DNA of 64,000 nucleotides, from assembly GCA_019428855.1 (NCBI GenBank), contig JAHYJV010000001.1:14885-78884 (forward strand), in the 5' to 3' direction. Both the position numbers and the translations under genes were made by a program. The stretch comes from Patescibacteria group bacterium. Its GTDB lineage: Bacteria > Patescibacteriota > Minisyncoccia > JAHIHE01 > JAGLIN01. This document shows positions 4,885 through 60,024 of the stretch, piece after piece. The notes beneath the pieces are model-generated. The model saw only the letters and a list, made by a program, of their open reading frames with translations, was not told the origin of the DNA and searched no databases. Each line of letters opens with the position of its first letter. The first letter of the stretch is position 1.

Positions 4885-4953
4885 CAAAAGTATATTACTT
4901 TTTGAATTACGCAACGCAAAATATATTAATTAGTATATCTTAAAAAAATTACC

Positions 4954-5006: not shown

Positions 5007-5514
5007 AGATATTAGAGTTACATAATTCAATTGTGAACCAAAAAATTATAGTATTATTAGCAATAATTTTAATCGCCATTTTAGCGATAGCTATTATTGC
5101 TATGAAACAAAATCAATCTTAAAACGAAGGAACTAATAAACAGAAACTCCAACAGAAATTTTAGTTAATAAAATCTCAATATGAACGGGCAAAAGCAGAA
5201 GTATCCGATATTTTTCTTATAACAATAATTATGGCACCGAAATAAAACTCGCTTAAGGAAATATCTTAGTAGAAATTATGCAGACAGATCAGAATGTTGA
5301 ATGGAGTATTAAGTTATTTTTGTCATTGCGAGGAGCCGAAGAGACAAAGCAATCTCTCTCATGCATTTCTCATCTCTGTTATTGCGAGGAGTAGCAACGA
5401 TGAAGCAATCTATAGCTGTAACATAAGACTACTTCGCTATGAATACATAACTCGCAATAACAGAAGTATCGGCAGGGTTAATCAATAAAATAGTTAAAAA
5501 TTAAATTAAATAAT

Positions 5515-7797: not shown

Positions 7798-8084
7798 GAT
7801 TTGTCATTACTTAAATACAAGATTATGGATTCATGGTCTCGCGGGATCTTGGATGGCTAAATAGAATTTTTATTTTATAGAGAAAAGATCCCGTTGTCAT
7901 TCCGTACGCAGAGAAAAGAAGTTGAGGAATAGCTCTTTTTTTCAGTTATCATATAAATACTAATTTTTAAACTGGTCATTACCGCGGAGCAAGAATGACA
8001 ATTAAAGTCTAGGGTTAATAAGAAAGCTGTAAATGACAATCTGAAATATAATAAATAACTTTATTAAAAACTAATTTTAAACAT

Positions 8085-8549
8085 ATGACAAAAAAAAATA
8101 TCAAGAAGGTAGAAAAAATGGAAATTAAGAAGGATATGCCACAGGACCACTACTATACAAATTCAACACAATTACCAGTTAATTATACTGATGATTTATT
8201 TGAAGCAGTTGATTTACAAAATCCTTTGCAAACAAAATATACAGGTGGAACTGTGATGCATGCTTTTTTAGGTGAAAGATTGCCAAGTGGAAAAGAAGCA
8301 AAGCTGTTGGTAAAAAAAATATTTGAAAAATCTCAAATGCCATATCTTTCTCTTACTCCAACTTTTAGTGTTTGCCCAAATCATGGTTATCTTTCTGGTG
8401 AACATTTCACTTGTCCAAAATGCCTAATTGAACAACCTTGCGAAGTTTATTCAAGAGTAGTGGGATATTTGCGTCCTGTTCAACAATGGAATAAGGGAAA
8501 AGTTTCCGAATATGCGAGAAGAAAAGTATTTAAGGCTAAAATAAAATAA
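8085..8549 (+). CDS. Stand-alone NrdD C-terminal domain protein (glycyl-radical loop + Zn ribbon), copy 1
   Basis: YYTNSTQLPVNY...YTGGTVMHAFLGE...LTPTFSVCPNHGY...CPKC...YSRVVGYLRPVQQWNKGKVSEYARRKVF matches the C-terminal ~150 aa of anaerobic ribonucleoside-triphosphate reductase, including the RVxGY glycyl-radical motif. Confidence 0.8.
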   Translation: MTKKNIKKVEKMEIKKDMPQDHYYTNSTQLPVNYTDDLFEAVDLQNPLQTKYTGGTVMHAFLGERLPSGKEAKLLVKKIFEKSQMPYLSLTPTFSVCPNHGYLSGEHFTCPKCLIEQPCEVYSRVVGYLRPVQQWNKGKVSEYARRKVFKAKIK

Positions 8550-8673
8550 GATTGTTCAAGATTAACATTACCGCGGAGCAAGAATGACAATTAAAGTCTA
8601 GGGTTAATAAGAAAGCTGTAAATGACAATCTGAAATATAATAAATAACTTTATTAAAAACTAATTTTAAACAT

Positions 8674-9138
8674 ATGACAAAAAAAAATATCAAGAAGGTA
8701 GAAAAAATGGAAATTAAGAAGGATATGCCACAGGACCACTACTATACAAATTCAACACAATTACCAGTTAATTATACTGATGATTTATTTGAAGCAGTTG
8801 ATTTACAAAATCCTTTGCAAACAAAATATACAGGTGGAACTGTGATGCATGCTTTTTTAGGTGAAAGATTGCCAAGTGGAAAAGAAGCAAAGCTGTTGGT
8901 AAAAAAAATATTTGAAAAATCTCAAATGCCATATCTTTCTCTTACTCCAACTTTTAGTGTTTGCCCAAATCATGGTTATCTTTCTGGTGAACATTTCACT
9001 TGTCCAAAATGCCTAATTGAACAACCTTGCGAAGTTTATTCAAGAGTAGTGGGATATTTGCGTCCTGTTCAACAATGGAATAAGGGAAAAGTTTCCGAAT
9101 ATGCGAGAAGAAAAGTATTTAAGGCTAAAATAAAATAA
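8674..9138 (+). CDS. Stand-alone NrdD C-terminal domain protein, copy 2 (identical)
   Basis: The translation is identical to the ORF at 8085-8549. Confidence 0.8.
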   Translation: MTKKNIKKVEKMEIKKDMPQDHYYTNSTQLPVNYTDDLFEAVDLQNPLQTKYTGGTVMHAFLGERLPSGKEAKLLVKKIFEKSQMPYLSLTPTFSVCPNHGYLSGEHFTCPKCLIEQPCEVYSRVVGYLRPVQQWNKGKVSEYARRKVFKAKIK

Positions 9139-10975: not shown

Positions 10976-11065
10976 GAATTTTAATAGGGCTCAAAATAAA
11001 GACAGTTTTTTGAAGTTGTATCTCAATAGGGTTGTTTAAGTATATTCTTGGTTTATGTAATATTC

Positions 11066-11196
11066 TTGAATTACGAAATACAACATACTTGTCACCCTGA
11101 GCTTGTCGAAGTGTTGAAGTTGCAAGAAATACTACTAATCAAGATGAATTAACTTCGACAAGACCATCATGAGAAATTTAGCTATTTCATAATTCA
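11066..11196. mobile_element. MITE copy A (variant 1) with TIRs TTGAATTACGAAAT / ATTTCATAATTCAA
   Basis: It shares termini with five other copies and its internal sequence with copy B (43322-43454). Confidence 0.55.
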
Positions 11197-11342
11197 AAAT
11201 AATATACAATTTCTAAGGGACTGTCCTTTAATGGGTTGTTCGGTCTAATTTAAATTAACTCAGTAAAATGAGTTATTTTATTGATTCGCACAGGTTGATT
11301 AGTTTCTTTTTCTGTGATATAAATTATATATTGTTCAAATAT

Positions 11343-11413
11343 TCGGGGGTCGTCTAATGGTAGGACGGCAGGTTCTGGTCCTGCTAATCGGGGTTCGAGT
11401 CCCTGCTCCCGAA
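11343..11413 (+). tRNA. tRNA-Gln (anticodon CTG)
   Basis: Acceptor TCGGGGG/CTCCCGA with a U1-A72 pair as in bacterial tRNA-Gln; anticodon stem GCAGG/CCTGC with loop TTCTGGT; T-arm CGGGG-TTCGAGT-CCCTG. Confidence 0.7.
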
Positions 11414-11467
11414 CAAACAAAATATCCGCCTTAGCTAGCGGTTATTTTATTATTATCCCAATATATT

Positions 11468-11598
11468 TAATTCCTTTGAATTACGAAATGCTGTTTTCTT
11501 GTCTTCTCGAATAATATGAGAGATCTTAAAATACGGGAAATGAAACTAAATTTATTTTTAGACCATTCCGTCGCTACCGCTCTTTCGGGATGACAAAG
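11468..11598. mobile_element. MITE copy C (variant 2), truncated and lacking the 3' TIR
   Basis: The 5' TIR and internal sequence match copies D and F; the element ends at ..GGGATGACAAAG. Confidence 0.45.
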
Positions 11599-11656
11599 TA
11601 TGCTGAGTTCAGGTGCTTGATATGTTGGTTTTGATGTAATGTGCAATAGATTCTGA

Positions 11657-11818
11657 ATTACTTTGAATTAGGAAATGCTGTTTTCTTGTCATCTCGAACA
11701 ATATGAGAGATCTTAGAATATGGGAAATTAAAATAGATTTAATTTTAGATCCCTTTGTCGCTACCTCTTTTTCAGGATGACAAAAAAAGAAATGCTAATT
11801 TCGTAATTCAAAGTAATT
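11657..11818. mobile_element. MITE copy D (variant 2), complete with 21-bp TIRs AATTACTTTGAATTAGGAAAT / ATTTCGTAATTCAAAGTAATT
   Basis: Inverted termini read directly; the internal sequence is about 90% identical to C and F. Confidence 0.6.
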
Positions 11819-12116
11819 CATTAGTTCTTGACATTATTTTTTATCAGATATATACTTATGATACTTACTTACCAACTGGTAAGTAAGTAAACAAGAGACA
11901 ATAAAGGAGGAAAAAAGTATATCGAATTTAATTAAAAAAAAAGAGATATTTTTACGAAAAATCTCTTGTATAGTGTTTTTTAATTTAATTTTTCTTCGAA
12001 TAATACGCAGAAAAATTAAGCACAGAGGCTTTCGGAATTTTTTGTAGAAAAAAATATTTTTCTACACCTTTTAAAATTACAATTTTCAATATTAAGCAAT
12101 TATTAAAATATTACAT

Positions 12117-22890: not shown

Positions 22891-23100
22891 GTTTACAATT
22901 GCTTTATTTTAAGTAATTTATTGTCATTTCAGATCCCATTTGGTAAGAAATCTCTTAGTGGATTTTTTCAGAAAACATAATAAATATCAGAATAAAATCT
23001 AGAAAATCTTTCAATTATACCTCATTTCGAGATAATAAATAATATAATTTTAGTTTAACATAAATATCGAGAATGATGAATAGAAAATGATGAAATTTCT

Positions 23101-23262
23101 AATTACTTTGAATTACGAAATACCTCCTTTTGTCATTTCGAAATGAGCGATAGCGATTGAGAAATCCCTTCAACAATGTAAATAGCGATAATAATATTGA
23201 AGGGATTCCTCGCTTAAGGCTCAAAATGACACAAAAATTTGCATTTCGCAATTCAAAGTAAT
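23101..23262. mobile_element. MITE copy E (variant 3) with TIRs AATTACTTTGAATTACGAAAT / ATTTCGCAATTCAAAGTAATT
   Basis: It carries an internal 11-bp inverted repeat AATCCCTTCAA/TTGAAGGGATT and ends 60 bp upstream of a GT4 gene. Confidence 0.6.
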
Positions 23263-23322
23263 TATTGACACTCCAGACCATAGGCTTATAATTAAAGCAG
23301 TAAATAACTAATTTGTAAATAT

Positions 23323-41540: not shown

Positions 41541-41609
41541 ATTATATATTTGGTTAATATTATCTAGTATTTAAATTATTGCATAATTTCGGAAAAATGC
41601 AAATAAAAA

Positions 41610-41716
41610 GGCTCTACACTAATTAGTGTGGTTGATAACTAAAGAAGTGGTAGAACGATATTGATAAATTAACAATTCATGTCACTCCTTTGAAAAATGT
41701 AATCAAAAACTCGTTT
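41610..41716 (+). repeat. Conserved intergenic module R1-R2, copy 1, containing the perfect 14-bp palindrome ACACTAATTAGTGT
   Basis: GGCTCTACACTAATTAGTGTGG...GTGGTAGAA..ATATTGATAAATTAA..CACTCCTTTGAAAAATGTAATCAAAAACTCGTTT. Homologous copies lie at 43257-43504 and 59698-59803. Confidence 0.55.
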
Positions 41717-41928
41717 AAAATTTCATCATAGGTGGCGGTAAAAGCCGAGAAGTCCCTATTAATCGCACTAAGTCTTATCAAACATCAATTCCGAGCTATA
41801 AACGATTCCTTTATGCAGTTTTACTATTATTGGAATGACAGTTAAAAATTATTATATTTTAATCATCATCTGTTTTGAAAAAAGCTAATAAAAAACAGCC
41901 TATTGGCGTTTAATTTAGCGGGAGAGTA

Positions 41929-41988
41929 GGGTAGCTGTAGCAACGAACTCCAGCTACCCCATGTGTTCCTTTTTCGGAACATTTTTTA
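41929..41988 (+). terminator. Two consecutive hairpins plus a T-run (GGGTAGCTG..CAGCTACCC; TGTTCC-TTTTT-GGAACA-TTTTTT), an orphan terminator or small RNA 3' end
   Basis: Read directly. Neither flanking gene is on the plus strand. Confidence 0.3.
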
Positions 41989-42264
41989 TTACATTAAATA
42001 TATCAATTAACTATAATAATGTCAATAGCACAAATATGGTGACAAATAAAAGGAAAAATATACTTATCCACATTTTACAGAAAAGTGAATTGGTGCGGTG
42101 TACTGAATATTGAAATACAAAATTTAGATTAAATATCTAAATTTAGCGTGGTTAGTTTTTTTCAAAGCCCATCTTTACATTATAATATTTTTTTAAAAAA
42201 CAAAAAAACTTGTAGCTAAGGATTTTTGTTTATACAAACTTTAAGATTTTGATTATTGCTAGTG

Positions 42265-43182
42265 TTATAACCATGTTTTGAATTTGAAATAAACAAATGA
42301 AATTGAAGTTACGAACATCATGAAAAATATTACAGTCCAAAATCCGTATGGTTGATTTTCAAAAGGCATCCCGTTAGTGACATTCATGCCGAAGACATTG
42401 GCTATGAGTGAGAGGGGAAGCATAATAACGGAAAATGCGGTCAAAATCTTCATGGTATTGTTTAATTTATAAGACAAAAGGGATTCGTTAGTATGCTCTA
42501 GGGCTTCAATCATTTCTTTGTGATTTTCTAAAGTATTCCATACTTTGATGTTTGAACCGATTACTTCGGTGGAAAGTCTGGTTAAATTCGAATCAGAAAT
42601 TTTTGTAATATTTCGAGAAAGAATTTCAAGAACCATTCTCTGTGGTTTCATTATTCTTCTGAAACTGATGATATCGTGTTTGACAATGGCAATTTCACTA
42701 ACCATCTTTCTTTCATCTCCATTAAAAATTCCATCCTCGACATTACTAATATGATCATCAATGTGATCAAGCATAGGCATTCTGGTATCAATTAGTTTGT
42801 CTAATATTTTAAAGATAAGTTCTCCAGCATTATTTTTCAGATAGTAGTTTTTTGCCAGTTCATGAGCATTGCATTTTTCATATATTTTTTTGAGTTCAGG
42901 TAAAGACCCATTGTGACTAGTGATGAGAGTATCATTGAATAAAAGTATATCAAGTTCTGTTGCAGTTGTTTTTCTAATTTTCCTATTAAAAACTGGAAAA
43001 TGGATGACGATAAAAAAATAATCCTTGTAAATTTCAACTTTAGGTCTCTTTATTTTTGGGACATATTCTCTGAGGATTGATGGACAAATATTAAAATCAC
43101 GTTTCAAATATTCTACAGTATTTTTATTTGGATTTTCAATGTCAATCCATTTTACTTTACCATTTTGGATTTCTTGTTGCAT
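42265..43182 (-). CDS. corA: CorA-family Mg2+/Co2+ transporter
   Basis: GMN signature (FGMNVTNGMPFEN) followed by two C-terminal TM helices. Confidence 0.8.
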   Translation of the reverse strand: MQQEIQNGKVKWIDIENPNKNTVEYLKRDFNICPSILREYVPKIKRPKVEIYKDYFFIVIHFPVFNRKIRKTTATELDILLFNDTLITSHNGSLPELKKIYEKCNAHELAKNYYLKNNAGELIFKILDKLIDTRMPMLDHIDDHISNVEDGIFNGDERKMVSEIAIVKHDIISFRRIMKPQRMVLEILSRNITKISDSNLTRLSTEVIGSNIKVWNTLENHKEMIEALEHTNESLLSYKLNNTMKILTAFSVIMLPLSLIANVFGMNVTNGMPFENQPYGFWTVIFFMMFVTSISFVYFKFKTWL

Positions 43183-43256
43183 ATATTATTTTAATAAAAA
43201 ATTTAAGATCATTATCGTTATTATACAGTTTTTTAAAACGATTGACAAATAATTTG

Positions 43257-43504
43257 GGCTCTACACTAATAATTGTGGTGAAAAGCTAAAGAAGTGGTAG
43301 AATTATATTGATAAATTATTTTTAAATTACAAAATTCAACATACTTGTCACCCTGAGCCTGTCGAAGGGTTGAAGTTACAAGAAATATTATCAATCAATA
43401 TGAATTTACTTCGACAAGCTCACCATGACAAATTTAGCTATTTCGTAATTCAAAAGAATAAACAATACACCACTCCTTAGAAAAATGATATCAAAAAACT
43501 GTTT
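43257..43504 (+). repeat. R1-R2 module, copy 2, split by the insertion of MITE copy B
   Basis: R1 (43257-43318) and R2 (43471-43504) are contiguous in copy 1 but separated here by about 150 bp carrying the MITE. Confidence 0.55.
43322..43454. mobile_element. MITE copy B (variant 1)
   Basis: AAATTACAAAATTCAACATACTTGTCACCCTGAGCCTGTCGAAGG...CTTCGACAAGCTCACCATGACAAATTTAGCTATTTCGTAATTCAAAAG is about 85% identical to copy A. Confidence 0.55.
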
Positions 43505-43571
43505 TTATATATCAAGTATTTGCTTTTCTCTCAAGCCCCTTGACGCATTTTCTAAAACTATTATAATGTAA

Positions 43572-43598
43572 TTAGCACTCTCGTAGTGCAAGTGCTAA
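43572..43598 (+). promoter_or_regulatory. CIRCE operator (TTAGCACTC-N9-AAGTGCTAA) upstream of hrcA
   Basis: Matches the CIRCE consensus TTAGCACTC-N9-GAGTGCTAA at 17 of 18 positions. Confidence 0.8.
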
Positions 43599-44926: not shown

Positions 44927-45333
44927 TTAGTTTGAATTAAGAAATATTAATTATCATTTCGTGGGAGTGATAACGATGAGAAATCTATCTATAAAATTAA
45001 GCTTACTCAGCCTACTTTCAGATTTCTCGATCATATCTCACTTCGAGATGACAGTGAATATATATTTTTTCAATAAAATAAAAAAAGACGAAAAGTTTTA
45101 TGTTTAACTTTCCGACTGCAACATTTATCCTTTTTTTGTTTTCCGTACCCAATTATAGGTGCAGTCAAGATTGCATGTAGTGCCATATAAATTGTACTTA
45201 TGACAATACTAAGAATAATAATGTTTGGTATTTCTATAAGTAAAATGTTTTCGGTAAAATGGAAAAAATAAAATATGTCAGATGATTAACAGAAAAAAGA
45301 AGCCTTAAATAATTTAATAAATAATAAAAAAAT

Positions 45334-59367: not shown

Positions 59368-59697
59368 TTGACATAAGTCTGTTTATTAGAAAAAAGGTTC
59401 TTTGTCAAAATTTGTGGTGGTTAAGCATCGAAGTGGAACAAATGCTGATATAACCTTGGCTATATAATTTTGTCTGAAAGAAATGAGTAATTTAATAGTT
59501 CTTCTGGCTGGAGCGATAGCGGAGTGGAGTTTTACTGAAAACGCCGTGCTGTGAAATTACGGTCAAATTTTAGCTCTCGTAACATTTGACACTCCTGGAA
59601 ATTTGATTGTGCTTAGTTGGGGATTAATATCGGTAAAGATTTAGTAAGTCAAAGAGAGACTACTAATATCCTCTCGTCACTCTAGACAACATTTGAA

Positions 59698-59803
59698 AAC
59701 AGTTTTTTGATATCATTTTTCACAGGAGTGGTGGGAATTGTTAATTTATCAATATACTTCTTTTATTTTTTCATCTATCCACTATAATAATTAGTGTAGA
59801 GCC
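59698..59803 (-). repeat. R1-R2 module, copy 3 (reverse orientation)
   Basis: The reverse complement reads GGCTCTACACTAATTATTATAGTGG...ATATTGATAAATTAACAATTCCCACCACTCCTGTGAAAAATGATATCAAAAAACTGTT. Confidence 0.5.
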
Positions 59804-59844
59804 AAAAGAAATTGAATTTTTTATGTTAGTATTTAATGAAGTTT

Positions 59845-59995
59845 TTTGAATTACGAAATGAGCATTTCTTTTTTTGTCATCCCGAAAGAGCGGTAGCGAC
59901 GAAGGGATCTAAAAGTAAAGCTAGTTTCATTTCCCGTATTTTAAGATCTCTCATATTGTTCGAGATGACAAGAAAACAGCATTTCGTAATTCAAA
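59845..59995. mobile_element. MITE copy F (variant 2, reverse orientation relative to C/D)
   Basis: TTTTTGAATTACGAAATG....ATTTCGTAATTCAAAGG. It ends 30 bp upstream of a GT4 gene. Confidence 0.6.
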
Positions 59996-60024
59996 GGAAG
60001 TTATAAAATTAACTATATTAATGT

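Follow-up and report, generated by a model that had tools for sequence, protein, structure and literature searches.

Evidence that a MITE is nested in a decayed ISL3-derived fragment between corA and hrcA of a Patescibacteria genome

We analysed a stretch of 64,000 nucleotides from a Patescibacteria group bacterium (GCA_019428855.1, contig JAHYJV010000001.1, positions 14,885 to 78,884), called here the window; its G+C content is 31-36%. The region studied holds recR-dnaB-cysS on the minus strand, then corA (42265-43182, also minus), followed by hrcA-grpE-dnaK on the plus strand. A sequence-only reading of the window had described a module of ~107 bp, made of the blocks R1 and R2, which is contiguous at 41610-41716 and interrupted at 43257-43504 by a miniature inverted-repeat transposable element (MITE), named copy B. 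Comparison with related genomes makes it very probable that the corA-hrcA spacer contains two unrelated non-autonomous element families, one nested in the other: MITE B lies inside a decayed fragment of an ISL3-family insertion sequence (IS).

In the window, the module is present in three copies, from which we built an nhmmer profile. Copy w1, upstream of cysS, has R1 and R2 contiguous at 41610-41716 as described (profile match 41605-41720, E 1.6e-33). Copy w2, upstream of corA, does keep them apart: its halves match at 43250-43318 (E 2e-17) and 43459-43512 (E 1e-09), leaving a gap of ~143 bp. Similarity to the module breaks off at 43318 and is picked up again at 43457-43461, with no module match anywhere in the insert; the extension of similarity into the MITE, which would have spoken against an insertion, is not seen. 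A third, contiguous copy, w3, not mentioned in the sequence-only observation, lies upstream of a glycosyltransferase gene on the minus strand (59691-59803; profile match 59686-59811, E 2e-34). The initial description needs adjustment. The length of ~107 bp is right for the span 41610-41716, but the homology of w1 to a related-genome copy runs on to ~41807 and over 41832-41863, so that element-derived sequence extends to ~41863. The empty and filled sites do record a real insertion, but they are paralogous repeat copies (78-87% identical) and not alleles.

The module had been described as a conserved intergenic module; it is not a module of the host, and R1-R2 corresponds to nt 1-107 of an ISL3-family IS. 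In w3 and at two related loci, L001 and L003, a block found 230-590 bp past the module has a reverse complement, GG(C/T)TCTTTGTCAAAA(T/C)(G/T)TGTGGTGG..., that resembles R1 (GGCTCTACACTAATAACTGTGGTGG...). The left inverted repeat (IRL) of the module reads GGCTCTACACTAAT..TGTGGTGG; the two ends are related and form long imperfect terminal inverted repeats (TIRs). Scanning metagenomes with the right-end pattern returned 18 loci, and four of them (L014, L016, L020 and L026) hold complete elements of 1277 bp with both ends as in the module copies. These have the IRL GGCTCTATACTAA..GTGGTGGATAAC..GTGGTAGAAT, an ATG at nt 81 and a right inverted repeat (IRR) ending in ..CCACCACACGTTTTGACAAAGAGCC. Their open reading frame (ORF) of ~395 codons, running from the R1 side, matches DDE_Tnp_ISL3 (PF01610, E 1.5e-54) and Zn_ribbon_ISL3 (PF14690, E 6e-09).

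Aligned to these ISs, the module runs colinearly along nt 1-107 (67-77% identity, E 1e-11 to 5e-19), the transposase start codon included, and the right-hand blocks of w3, L001 and L003 correspond to nt 1200-1277. R1 represents the left inverted repeat, with GTGGTAGAAT as a putative extended -10 of the transposase promoter. R2 consists of CACCACTCCT followed by ATG or GTG and AAA AAT GAT ATC AAA AAA CTG; it covers the last part of the 5' untranslated region (5'UTR) and the first transposase codons, which encode M-K-K/N-G/D-I-K-E/K-L. In w2, the left half contains the left inverted repeat GGCTCTACACTAAT...GTGGTG... and the promoter-like TGGTAGAAT, its final 6 nt being the left copy of the MITE B target duplication. 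The right half reads CACCACTCCT-tAG-AAAAATGATATCAAAAAACTG, the end of the IS 5'UTR with what is left of the first ~9 transposase codons.

Flanking sequences point the same way. The 8-bp flanks of ten elements match at 54/80 positions, versus 32/80 for shuffled partners (P = 5e-5), with the best pair at L022 (7/8); w1 and w2, having no right end, are outside this test. The flanking 8-mers of w3 are TTTCTTTT and TTTTTTCT. Published ISL3 inverted repeats begin GGCTCTTCG and come with 8-bp direct repeats (PMC11448079, PMC6305408), and the flank match is the duplication expected of such elements. At other metagenome loci we found derivatives of 223-392 bp with both ends present. Judging from these alignments, the module is most probably what remains, in decayed form, of the left end of an ISL3-family element or a MITE derived from one. 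With both inverted repeats retained (GGCTCTACACTAAT... and ...TTTTGACAAAGAACC), copy w3 is a complete ISL3-derived MITE; in w1 and w2 the right end is gone.

The insert in w2 belongs to an independent family. MITE B has a decayed left TIR, TTTTAAATTACAAAAT, a right TIR, ATTTCGTAATTCAAAAG, and a palindromic core, GTCACCCTGAGCCTGTCGAAGGG...CTTCGACAAGCTCACCATGAC; it is predicted to fold into a long hairpin (-16.4 kcal/mol, z = -3.0). Identity reaches 88% with copy A of the window (11066-11199 aligned) and 75-79% with the copies at L001, L002 and L006. Members of the family are non-coding, 120-153 bp long, and share a 16-nt TIR, C(C/T)TTGAATTACGAAAT; at least six are present in the window, others at L001, L002, L006 and L009. 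Eight elements from the window and related loci carry the 15-nt TIR core TTTGAATTACGAAAT, with no more than two mismatches, at each end; MITE B itself has two mismatches in the left motif (2-3 over its left TIR) and none in the right. MITE B aligns over its whole length with other members, and an alignment of five members loses similarity exactly at the TIR tips.

The borders of the family were read from these copies. In six of the eight, a perfect direct 6-mer (a 7-mer in L001) stands exactly 1 nt outside the core on both sides: TAATAT, TAATTA, GAAGTT, AACCTTG, TATCTA and TAATTC. The single nucleotides between core and duplication are mutually complementary, C...G or T...A. From this complementarity and the constant direct repeats it follows that the element is N + core...core + N', with a 6-bp target duplication, longer than the 2-4 bp anticipated by the sequence-only reading. 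Duplications of TA, 1 nt or 7 bp were rejected for MITE B, since the family-wide rule is 6 bp; TA is also at odds with the consensus empty site. All uninterrupted module copies read ATAAATTAACAATT at the insertion point of MITE B, and the target was therefore AATTAA, which each half of the duplication matches at 5/6 positions. Joined without the MITE, the site across 43314-43462 would read ATAAATTAACAAT. Coordinates of all these features are collected in Table 1.

Table 1 Positions of the elements, their borders and the neighbouring promoters in the window
Feature	Position	Strand	Basis
MITE copy A, closest relative of B	11064..11199	+	perfect 6-bp duplication TAATAT (11058-11063, 11200-11205)
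cysS promoter TTTGCA-17-(TG)AATAAT	41575..41603	-	promoter scan
w1, uninterrupted IS left end	41610..41716	+	profile match; 70.6% identity to IS_L016 nt 1-125
corA promoter TTGTCA-17-TATAAT	43220..43248	-	promoter scan, 11/12 matches
w2 left half (R1)	43257..43319	+	nhmmer E 2e-17; 93.5% identical to L001 7129-7190; colinear with IS nt 1-66
Left target duplication of MITE B, AATTAT	43314..43319	.	family position rule
MITE copy B, 137 bp	43320..43456	+	family alignment; boundary rule
Right target duplication of MITE B, AATAAA	43457..43462	.	sequence and boundary rule; followed by CAAT, as in uninterrupted copies
w2 right half (R2)	43463..43510	+	nhmmer E 1e-09; aligns to IS nt ~67-107
hrcA promoter TTGACG-16-TATAAT and CIRCE operator	43540..43598	+	sequence, relatives, promoter scan
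w3, complete 408-bp ISL3-derived MITE	59396..59803	-	ends match IS nt 1-107 and 1200-1277
Second-subfamily MITE, same TIR as B	59844..59996	+	perfect 6-bp duplication GAAGTT (59838-59843, 59997-60002)

Related genomes supply further empty sites. We scanned 596 Gb of genomes with the R1 pattern (25 bases specified) and obtained exactly four further module copies, all in one metagenome-assembled genome (MAG), Patescibacteria group bacterium C14-28 (JARGGI01); a first metagenome scan with the R1 pattern and a viral scan gave no match. One locus of this MAG, L002, is the syntenic corA-hrcA-grpE-dnaK region, its corA DNA being 75% identical to that of the window. Its module is uninterrupted (784-881) and stands next to the corA -35 hexamer as in the window; the flanks at the left tip read TTGACAAATTATTAG|GGCTCT in L002 and TTGACAAATAATTTG|GGCTCT in the window. 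At a distance of ~130 nt from this module, L002 also bears an inversely oriented MITE of the family with its own duplication, TATCTA; this is an independent insertion. In total, the MITE B insert is missing from six uninterrupted module copies (two in the window, four in C14-28) and from all full-length ISs.

Homologues of CorA led to five more syntenic loci, four of which cover the corA-hrcA spacer; the fifth, L006, starts at corA. The four spacers (L005, L007/L008 and L009/L010; three distinct sequences) contain neither module nor MITE. Both neighbouring promoters are retained there: that of corA, TTGTCA-17-TATAAT, and that of hrcA together with its controlling inverted repeat of chaperone expression (CIRCE). 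In the window this operator reads TTAGCACTC-N9-AAGTGCTAA (43572-43598), and the hrcA promoter with CIRCE is the right-hand limit of the material inserted in the spacer. Two IS-free relatives, L006 and L009, likewise have the cysS promoter (TTGGCA...TGCAATAAT). Since element-free relatives share both the corA and the cysS promoter, these two belong to the host and not to the element.

The position of the ISL3-type elements relative to such promoters is regular. We collected 15 distinct sites from two Patescibacteria genomes and several metagenomes: 41603, 43248 and 59811 in the window, L001 ~7120, L002 ~775, L003 ~2735, L004 ~180, and sites in L011, L012, L014, L015/L016, L019, L022, L025 and L027. 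In 12 of the 15, TTG occupies outward positions 9-11 from the left tip, on a background of 1.75% per position (binomial P = 4e-19). At these 12 sites the left tip lies 8 bp, the length of the target duplication, upstream of a -35 hexamer that faces away from the element. The outward consensus is TTGACA, with TATAAT-like bases ~17 nt further on; at the other three sites the hexamer is 5-9 nt from the tip. An independent promoter scan places the promoters of corA and cysS at the positions in question: the corA -35 hexamer begins 8 nt beyond the left tip of w2, the cysS one 6 nt beyond that of w1.

Such regularity raises the idea that this ISL3 lineage homes to the upstream edge of sigma-70-type promoters, with an orientation-specific choice of target; we put it forward tentatively and at present rate it as less probable than not. 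The IRR of the ISL3-type element carries TTTTGACAAAGAGCC, and its transposase might recognise in the target a TTGACA/TTGTCAA box similar to that of this IRR. A shallow literature search returned no description of -35 targeting by ISL3 elements. If true, promoter-edge targeting would explain how the same corA site could be hit in two lineages; if confirmed experimentally, it would provide a useful example of how a DDE transposase selects its targets. As for the corA-site copies of the window and C14-28, they go back either to one ancestral insertion or to two at the same preferred site.

Several observations weigh against the nested reading or limit it. Neither w1 nor w2 has a recognisable right inverted repeat. 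The two halves of the MITE B duplication, AATTAT and AATAAA, agree at only 4/6 positions, and fitting them calls for an extra A in the A-run of the right TIR and, 6 nt beyond it, for the deletion of 2 nt; the cutting point of this copy is therefore deduced from the family rule and not read directly. No autonomous partner of either family turned up in the window (20 ORFs screened, no transposase), nor did 211 kb of related loci reveal one for the MITE B family; over all loci the search yielded a solo TIR at L003 7651 only, with no transposase-like ORF in the adjoining 350 nt. In addition, module copies of the two genomes share 86-93% identity, versus 75% for corA DNA. An old neutral relic fails to explain this conservation, which needs recent or independent insertion at one and the same preferred site, or constraint; to judge from the identities, recent, independent and site-specific insertion would fit better than an ancient neutral relic.

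The same conservation is what speaks for a different view of R1-R2, as a host cis-regulatory module or small RNA gene at the cysS, corA and glycosyltransferase promoters, a functional element that the MITE disrupted. Every copy also has the same orientation and lies 5-9 nt from the -35 hexamer of the neighbouring gene. We nevertheless consider a host module improbable: R1-R2 follows, in the same order, the left terminus, the 5'UTR and the initial codons of an ISL3 element that bears a transposase, ends sharply at GGCTCT, has a matching right inverted repeat in w3, L001 and L003, is missing from the orthologous spacers of four related loci with intact promoters, and matches no Rfam family. Exaptation of the ISL3 fragment after its insertion is possible. 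At the gathering score, Rfam 15 returned only a transfer-messenger RNA (tmRNA) and three tRNAs over the window, and E-value scans of the module and MITE regions gave nothing above chance. Weak matches to AaHKsRNA41 on both strands reflect the MITE palindrome only. An 18-codon reverse-strand ORF with a Shine-Dalgarno sequence in the module was also considered; it was dropped because its conserved blocks are conserved as nucleotides and its variable middle is not conservative. The true coding remnant, the transposase start, is on the opposite strand. The reading of the module as a promoter or activator site was displaced by the IS homology.

The polarity of the event could in principle be the reverse, the 143 bp being ancestral and the contiguous copies products of precise deletion. 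Nothing specific favours this, beyond the fact that a comparison of two copies alone gives no polarity. The segment is missing from six uninterrupted copies, spread over two genomes, and from all full-length ISs; it is a complete member of an independent family that occurs module-free elsewhere (11064-11199, L006 6137-6256), and it is bounded by a duplicated target. An ancestral segment is thereby effectively refuted, with very little probability left to it. Even less remains for chance matches in AT-rich intergenic DNA as the source of the R1 and R2 similarity. The window has 32% G+C and short AT-rich matches are common in it, as the noise of blastn-short illustrates, but the E-values of the two halves (2e-17 and 1e-09) and the return of exactly four further copies by a 25-base pattern in 596 Gb, all from one related MAG, make it practically negligible.

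We return to the nested insertion and propose a history for it. It builds on direct observations: the homologies, the boundaries, the duplication lengths of the families, presence and absence among relatives, and the ISL3 transposase of full-length relatives. As sequence comparison shows, an ISL3-type element inserted 8 bp upstream of the corA -35 hexamer. Its interior and right end would then have been lost, or it may have arrived as a MITE that was truncated later; the left ~110 nt remain. Next, again as shown by sequence comparison, a MITE of the second family integrated into AATTAA of the former 5'UTR and duplicated it, presumably mobilised in trans by a transposase encoded outside the window. 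Decay of both elements followed. The relative order, ISL3 fragment first and MITE second, is implied by the nesting. MITE B is an old insertion, because its left TIR and its duplication have decayed and its identity to copy A is 88%. The claim that this MITE family transposed within the genome accordingly holds for past transposition in the lineage; it does not necessarily extend to recent activity here.

Other copies of the MITE family add to this picture. Those at L002 1011-1130 and L001 7454-7575 (both C14-28) and L006 6137-6256 (a Joint Genome Institute metagenome contig) are 92-97% identical despite their different genomes or loci, which suggests recent activity or transfer of their subfamily among related Patescibacteria. 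Subfamilies have a common TIR and different palindromic cores. In the window, elements with the same TIR are dense (11050-11835, 23093-23266, 44931-44985, 4901-4915): three are beside tRNA-Gln, one of them truncated (11460-11597), and one beside smpB/tmRNA. A partial copy directly follows grpE, and tRNA-Gly is followed by a solo TIR-like site. The second-subfamily MITE at 59844-59996 sits between w3 and the glycosyltransferase gene (ATG 60025), and parts this ATG from w3 and from a weak upstream promoter-like site. In its right TIR, immediately upstream of the gene, stands TTCAAA-18-TATATT, and judging by this motif the MITE may now provide the -35 of the glycosyltransferase gene.

The spacer also separates genes of different affinity. 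HrcA is 90% and CorA 73% identical to the proteins of L009, versus 74% and 81%, respectively, for L005; these identities suggest mosaic ancestry across the spacer, with a possible recombination breakpoint near the element-bearing segment. Between w1 and corA, the plus strand of 41900-42030 shows a strong hairpin, GGGTAGCTG...CAGCTACCC, then a terminator-like hairpin with a T-run (41963-41982). No plus-strand gene lies upstream; on the minus strand there is an 11/12 promoter-like site with TG (42025->41997). This feature may be a small RNA or merely a relic; the related loci examined do not conserve it. Elsewhere in the window, palindromic repeats of the GTCATTGCGAGGAGC type occur at 5316-5411. 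In addition, a 300-nt direct repeat with 97% identity (7955-8254 and 8544-8843) lies over tandem ORFs of 154 amino acids (8085-8549, 8674-9138), suggesting that a gene was recently duplicated in tandem.

For annotation, this means that an apparent regulatory module at three promoters is transposon debris, and not the signal of a regulon or a small RNA. At least two MITE families were active in the past of this small Patescibacteria genome, and their density is high: 64 kb hold at least six copies of one TIR superfamily and three ISL3-derived fragments. Through their position near promoters of housekeeping genes (cysS, corA/hrcA and a glycosyltransferase gene), the elements may alter expression.

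Both elements are of known kinds, an ISL3-derived fragment or MITE and a TIR MITE, and are new, unnamed members from Patescibacteria. With the ISL3 family, the lineage shares the 8-bp target duplication and a transposase with DDE_Tnp_ISL3 and the ISL3 zinc ribbon. The inverted repeat of ISArsp7 (GGCTCTTCGCGGTTGGTGGTGAAT; PMC6305408) likewise starts with GGCTCT(T) and has a GTGGTG box. Short derivatives that keep only the ends, as here, are described for an ISL3-related MITE of Microcystis (PMC11448079), and an outward TTGACA like that of our IRR for the ISL3-derived hybrid promoter of S. pneumoniae (PMC13142319). In contrast, the transposase is only ~28% identical to annotated plasmid ISL3 transposases. 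The element is also short (1277 bp), its two inverted repeats diverge at nt 7-17 (ATACTAAACAG vs TTGTCAAAACG), and its insertion sites are strict in position and orientation relative to -35 hexamers.

The family of MITE B resembles Stowaway/Tc1-mariner-IS630 MITEs in its length of ~140 bp, its AT-rich targets and its ability to form hairpins; those elements duplicate TA, whereas the duplications here are of 6 bp and of varied sequence. Its TIR, C(C/T)TTGAATTACGAAAT, was matched to no IS in this work. Nested MITE insertions have classically been used to order transposition events. What sets the present case apart from other examples of a MITE within a MITE or an IS is its setting in a small Patescibacteria (candidate phyla radiation, CPR) genome, with unnamed families and a window without an autonomous copy. 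The logic is the same: a short TIR element with its target duplication breaks an older repeat, and uninterrupted paralogues, together with a same-position copy in a related genome, serve as the empty sites.

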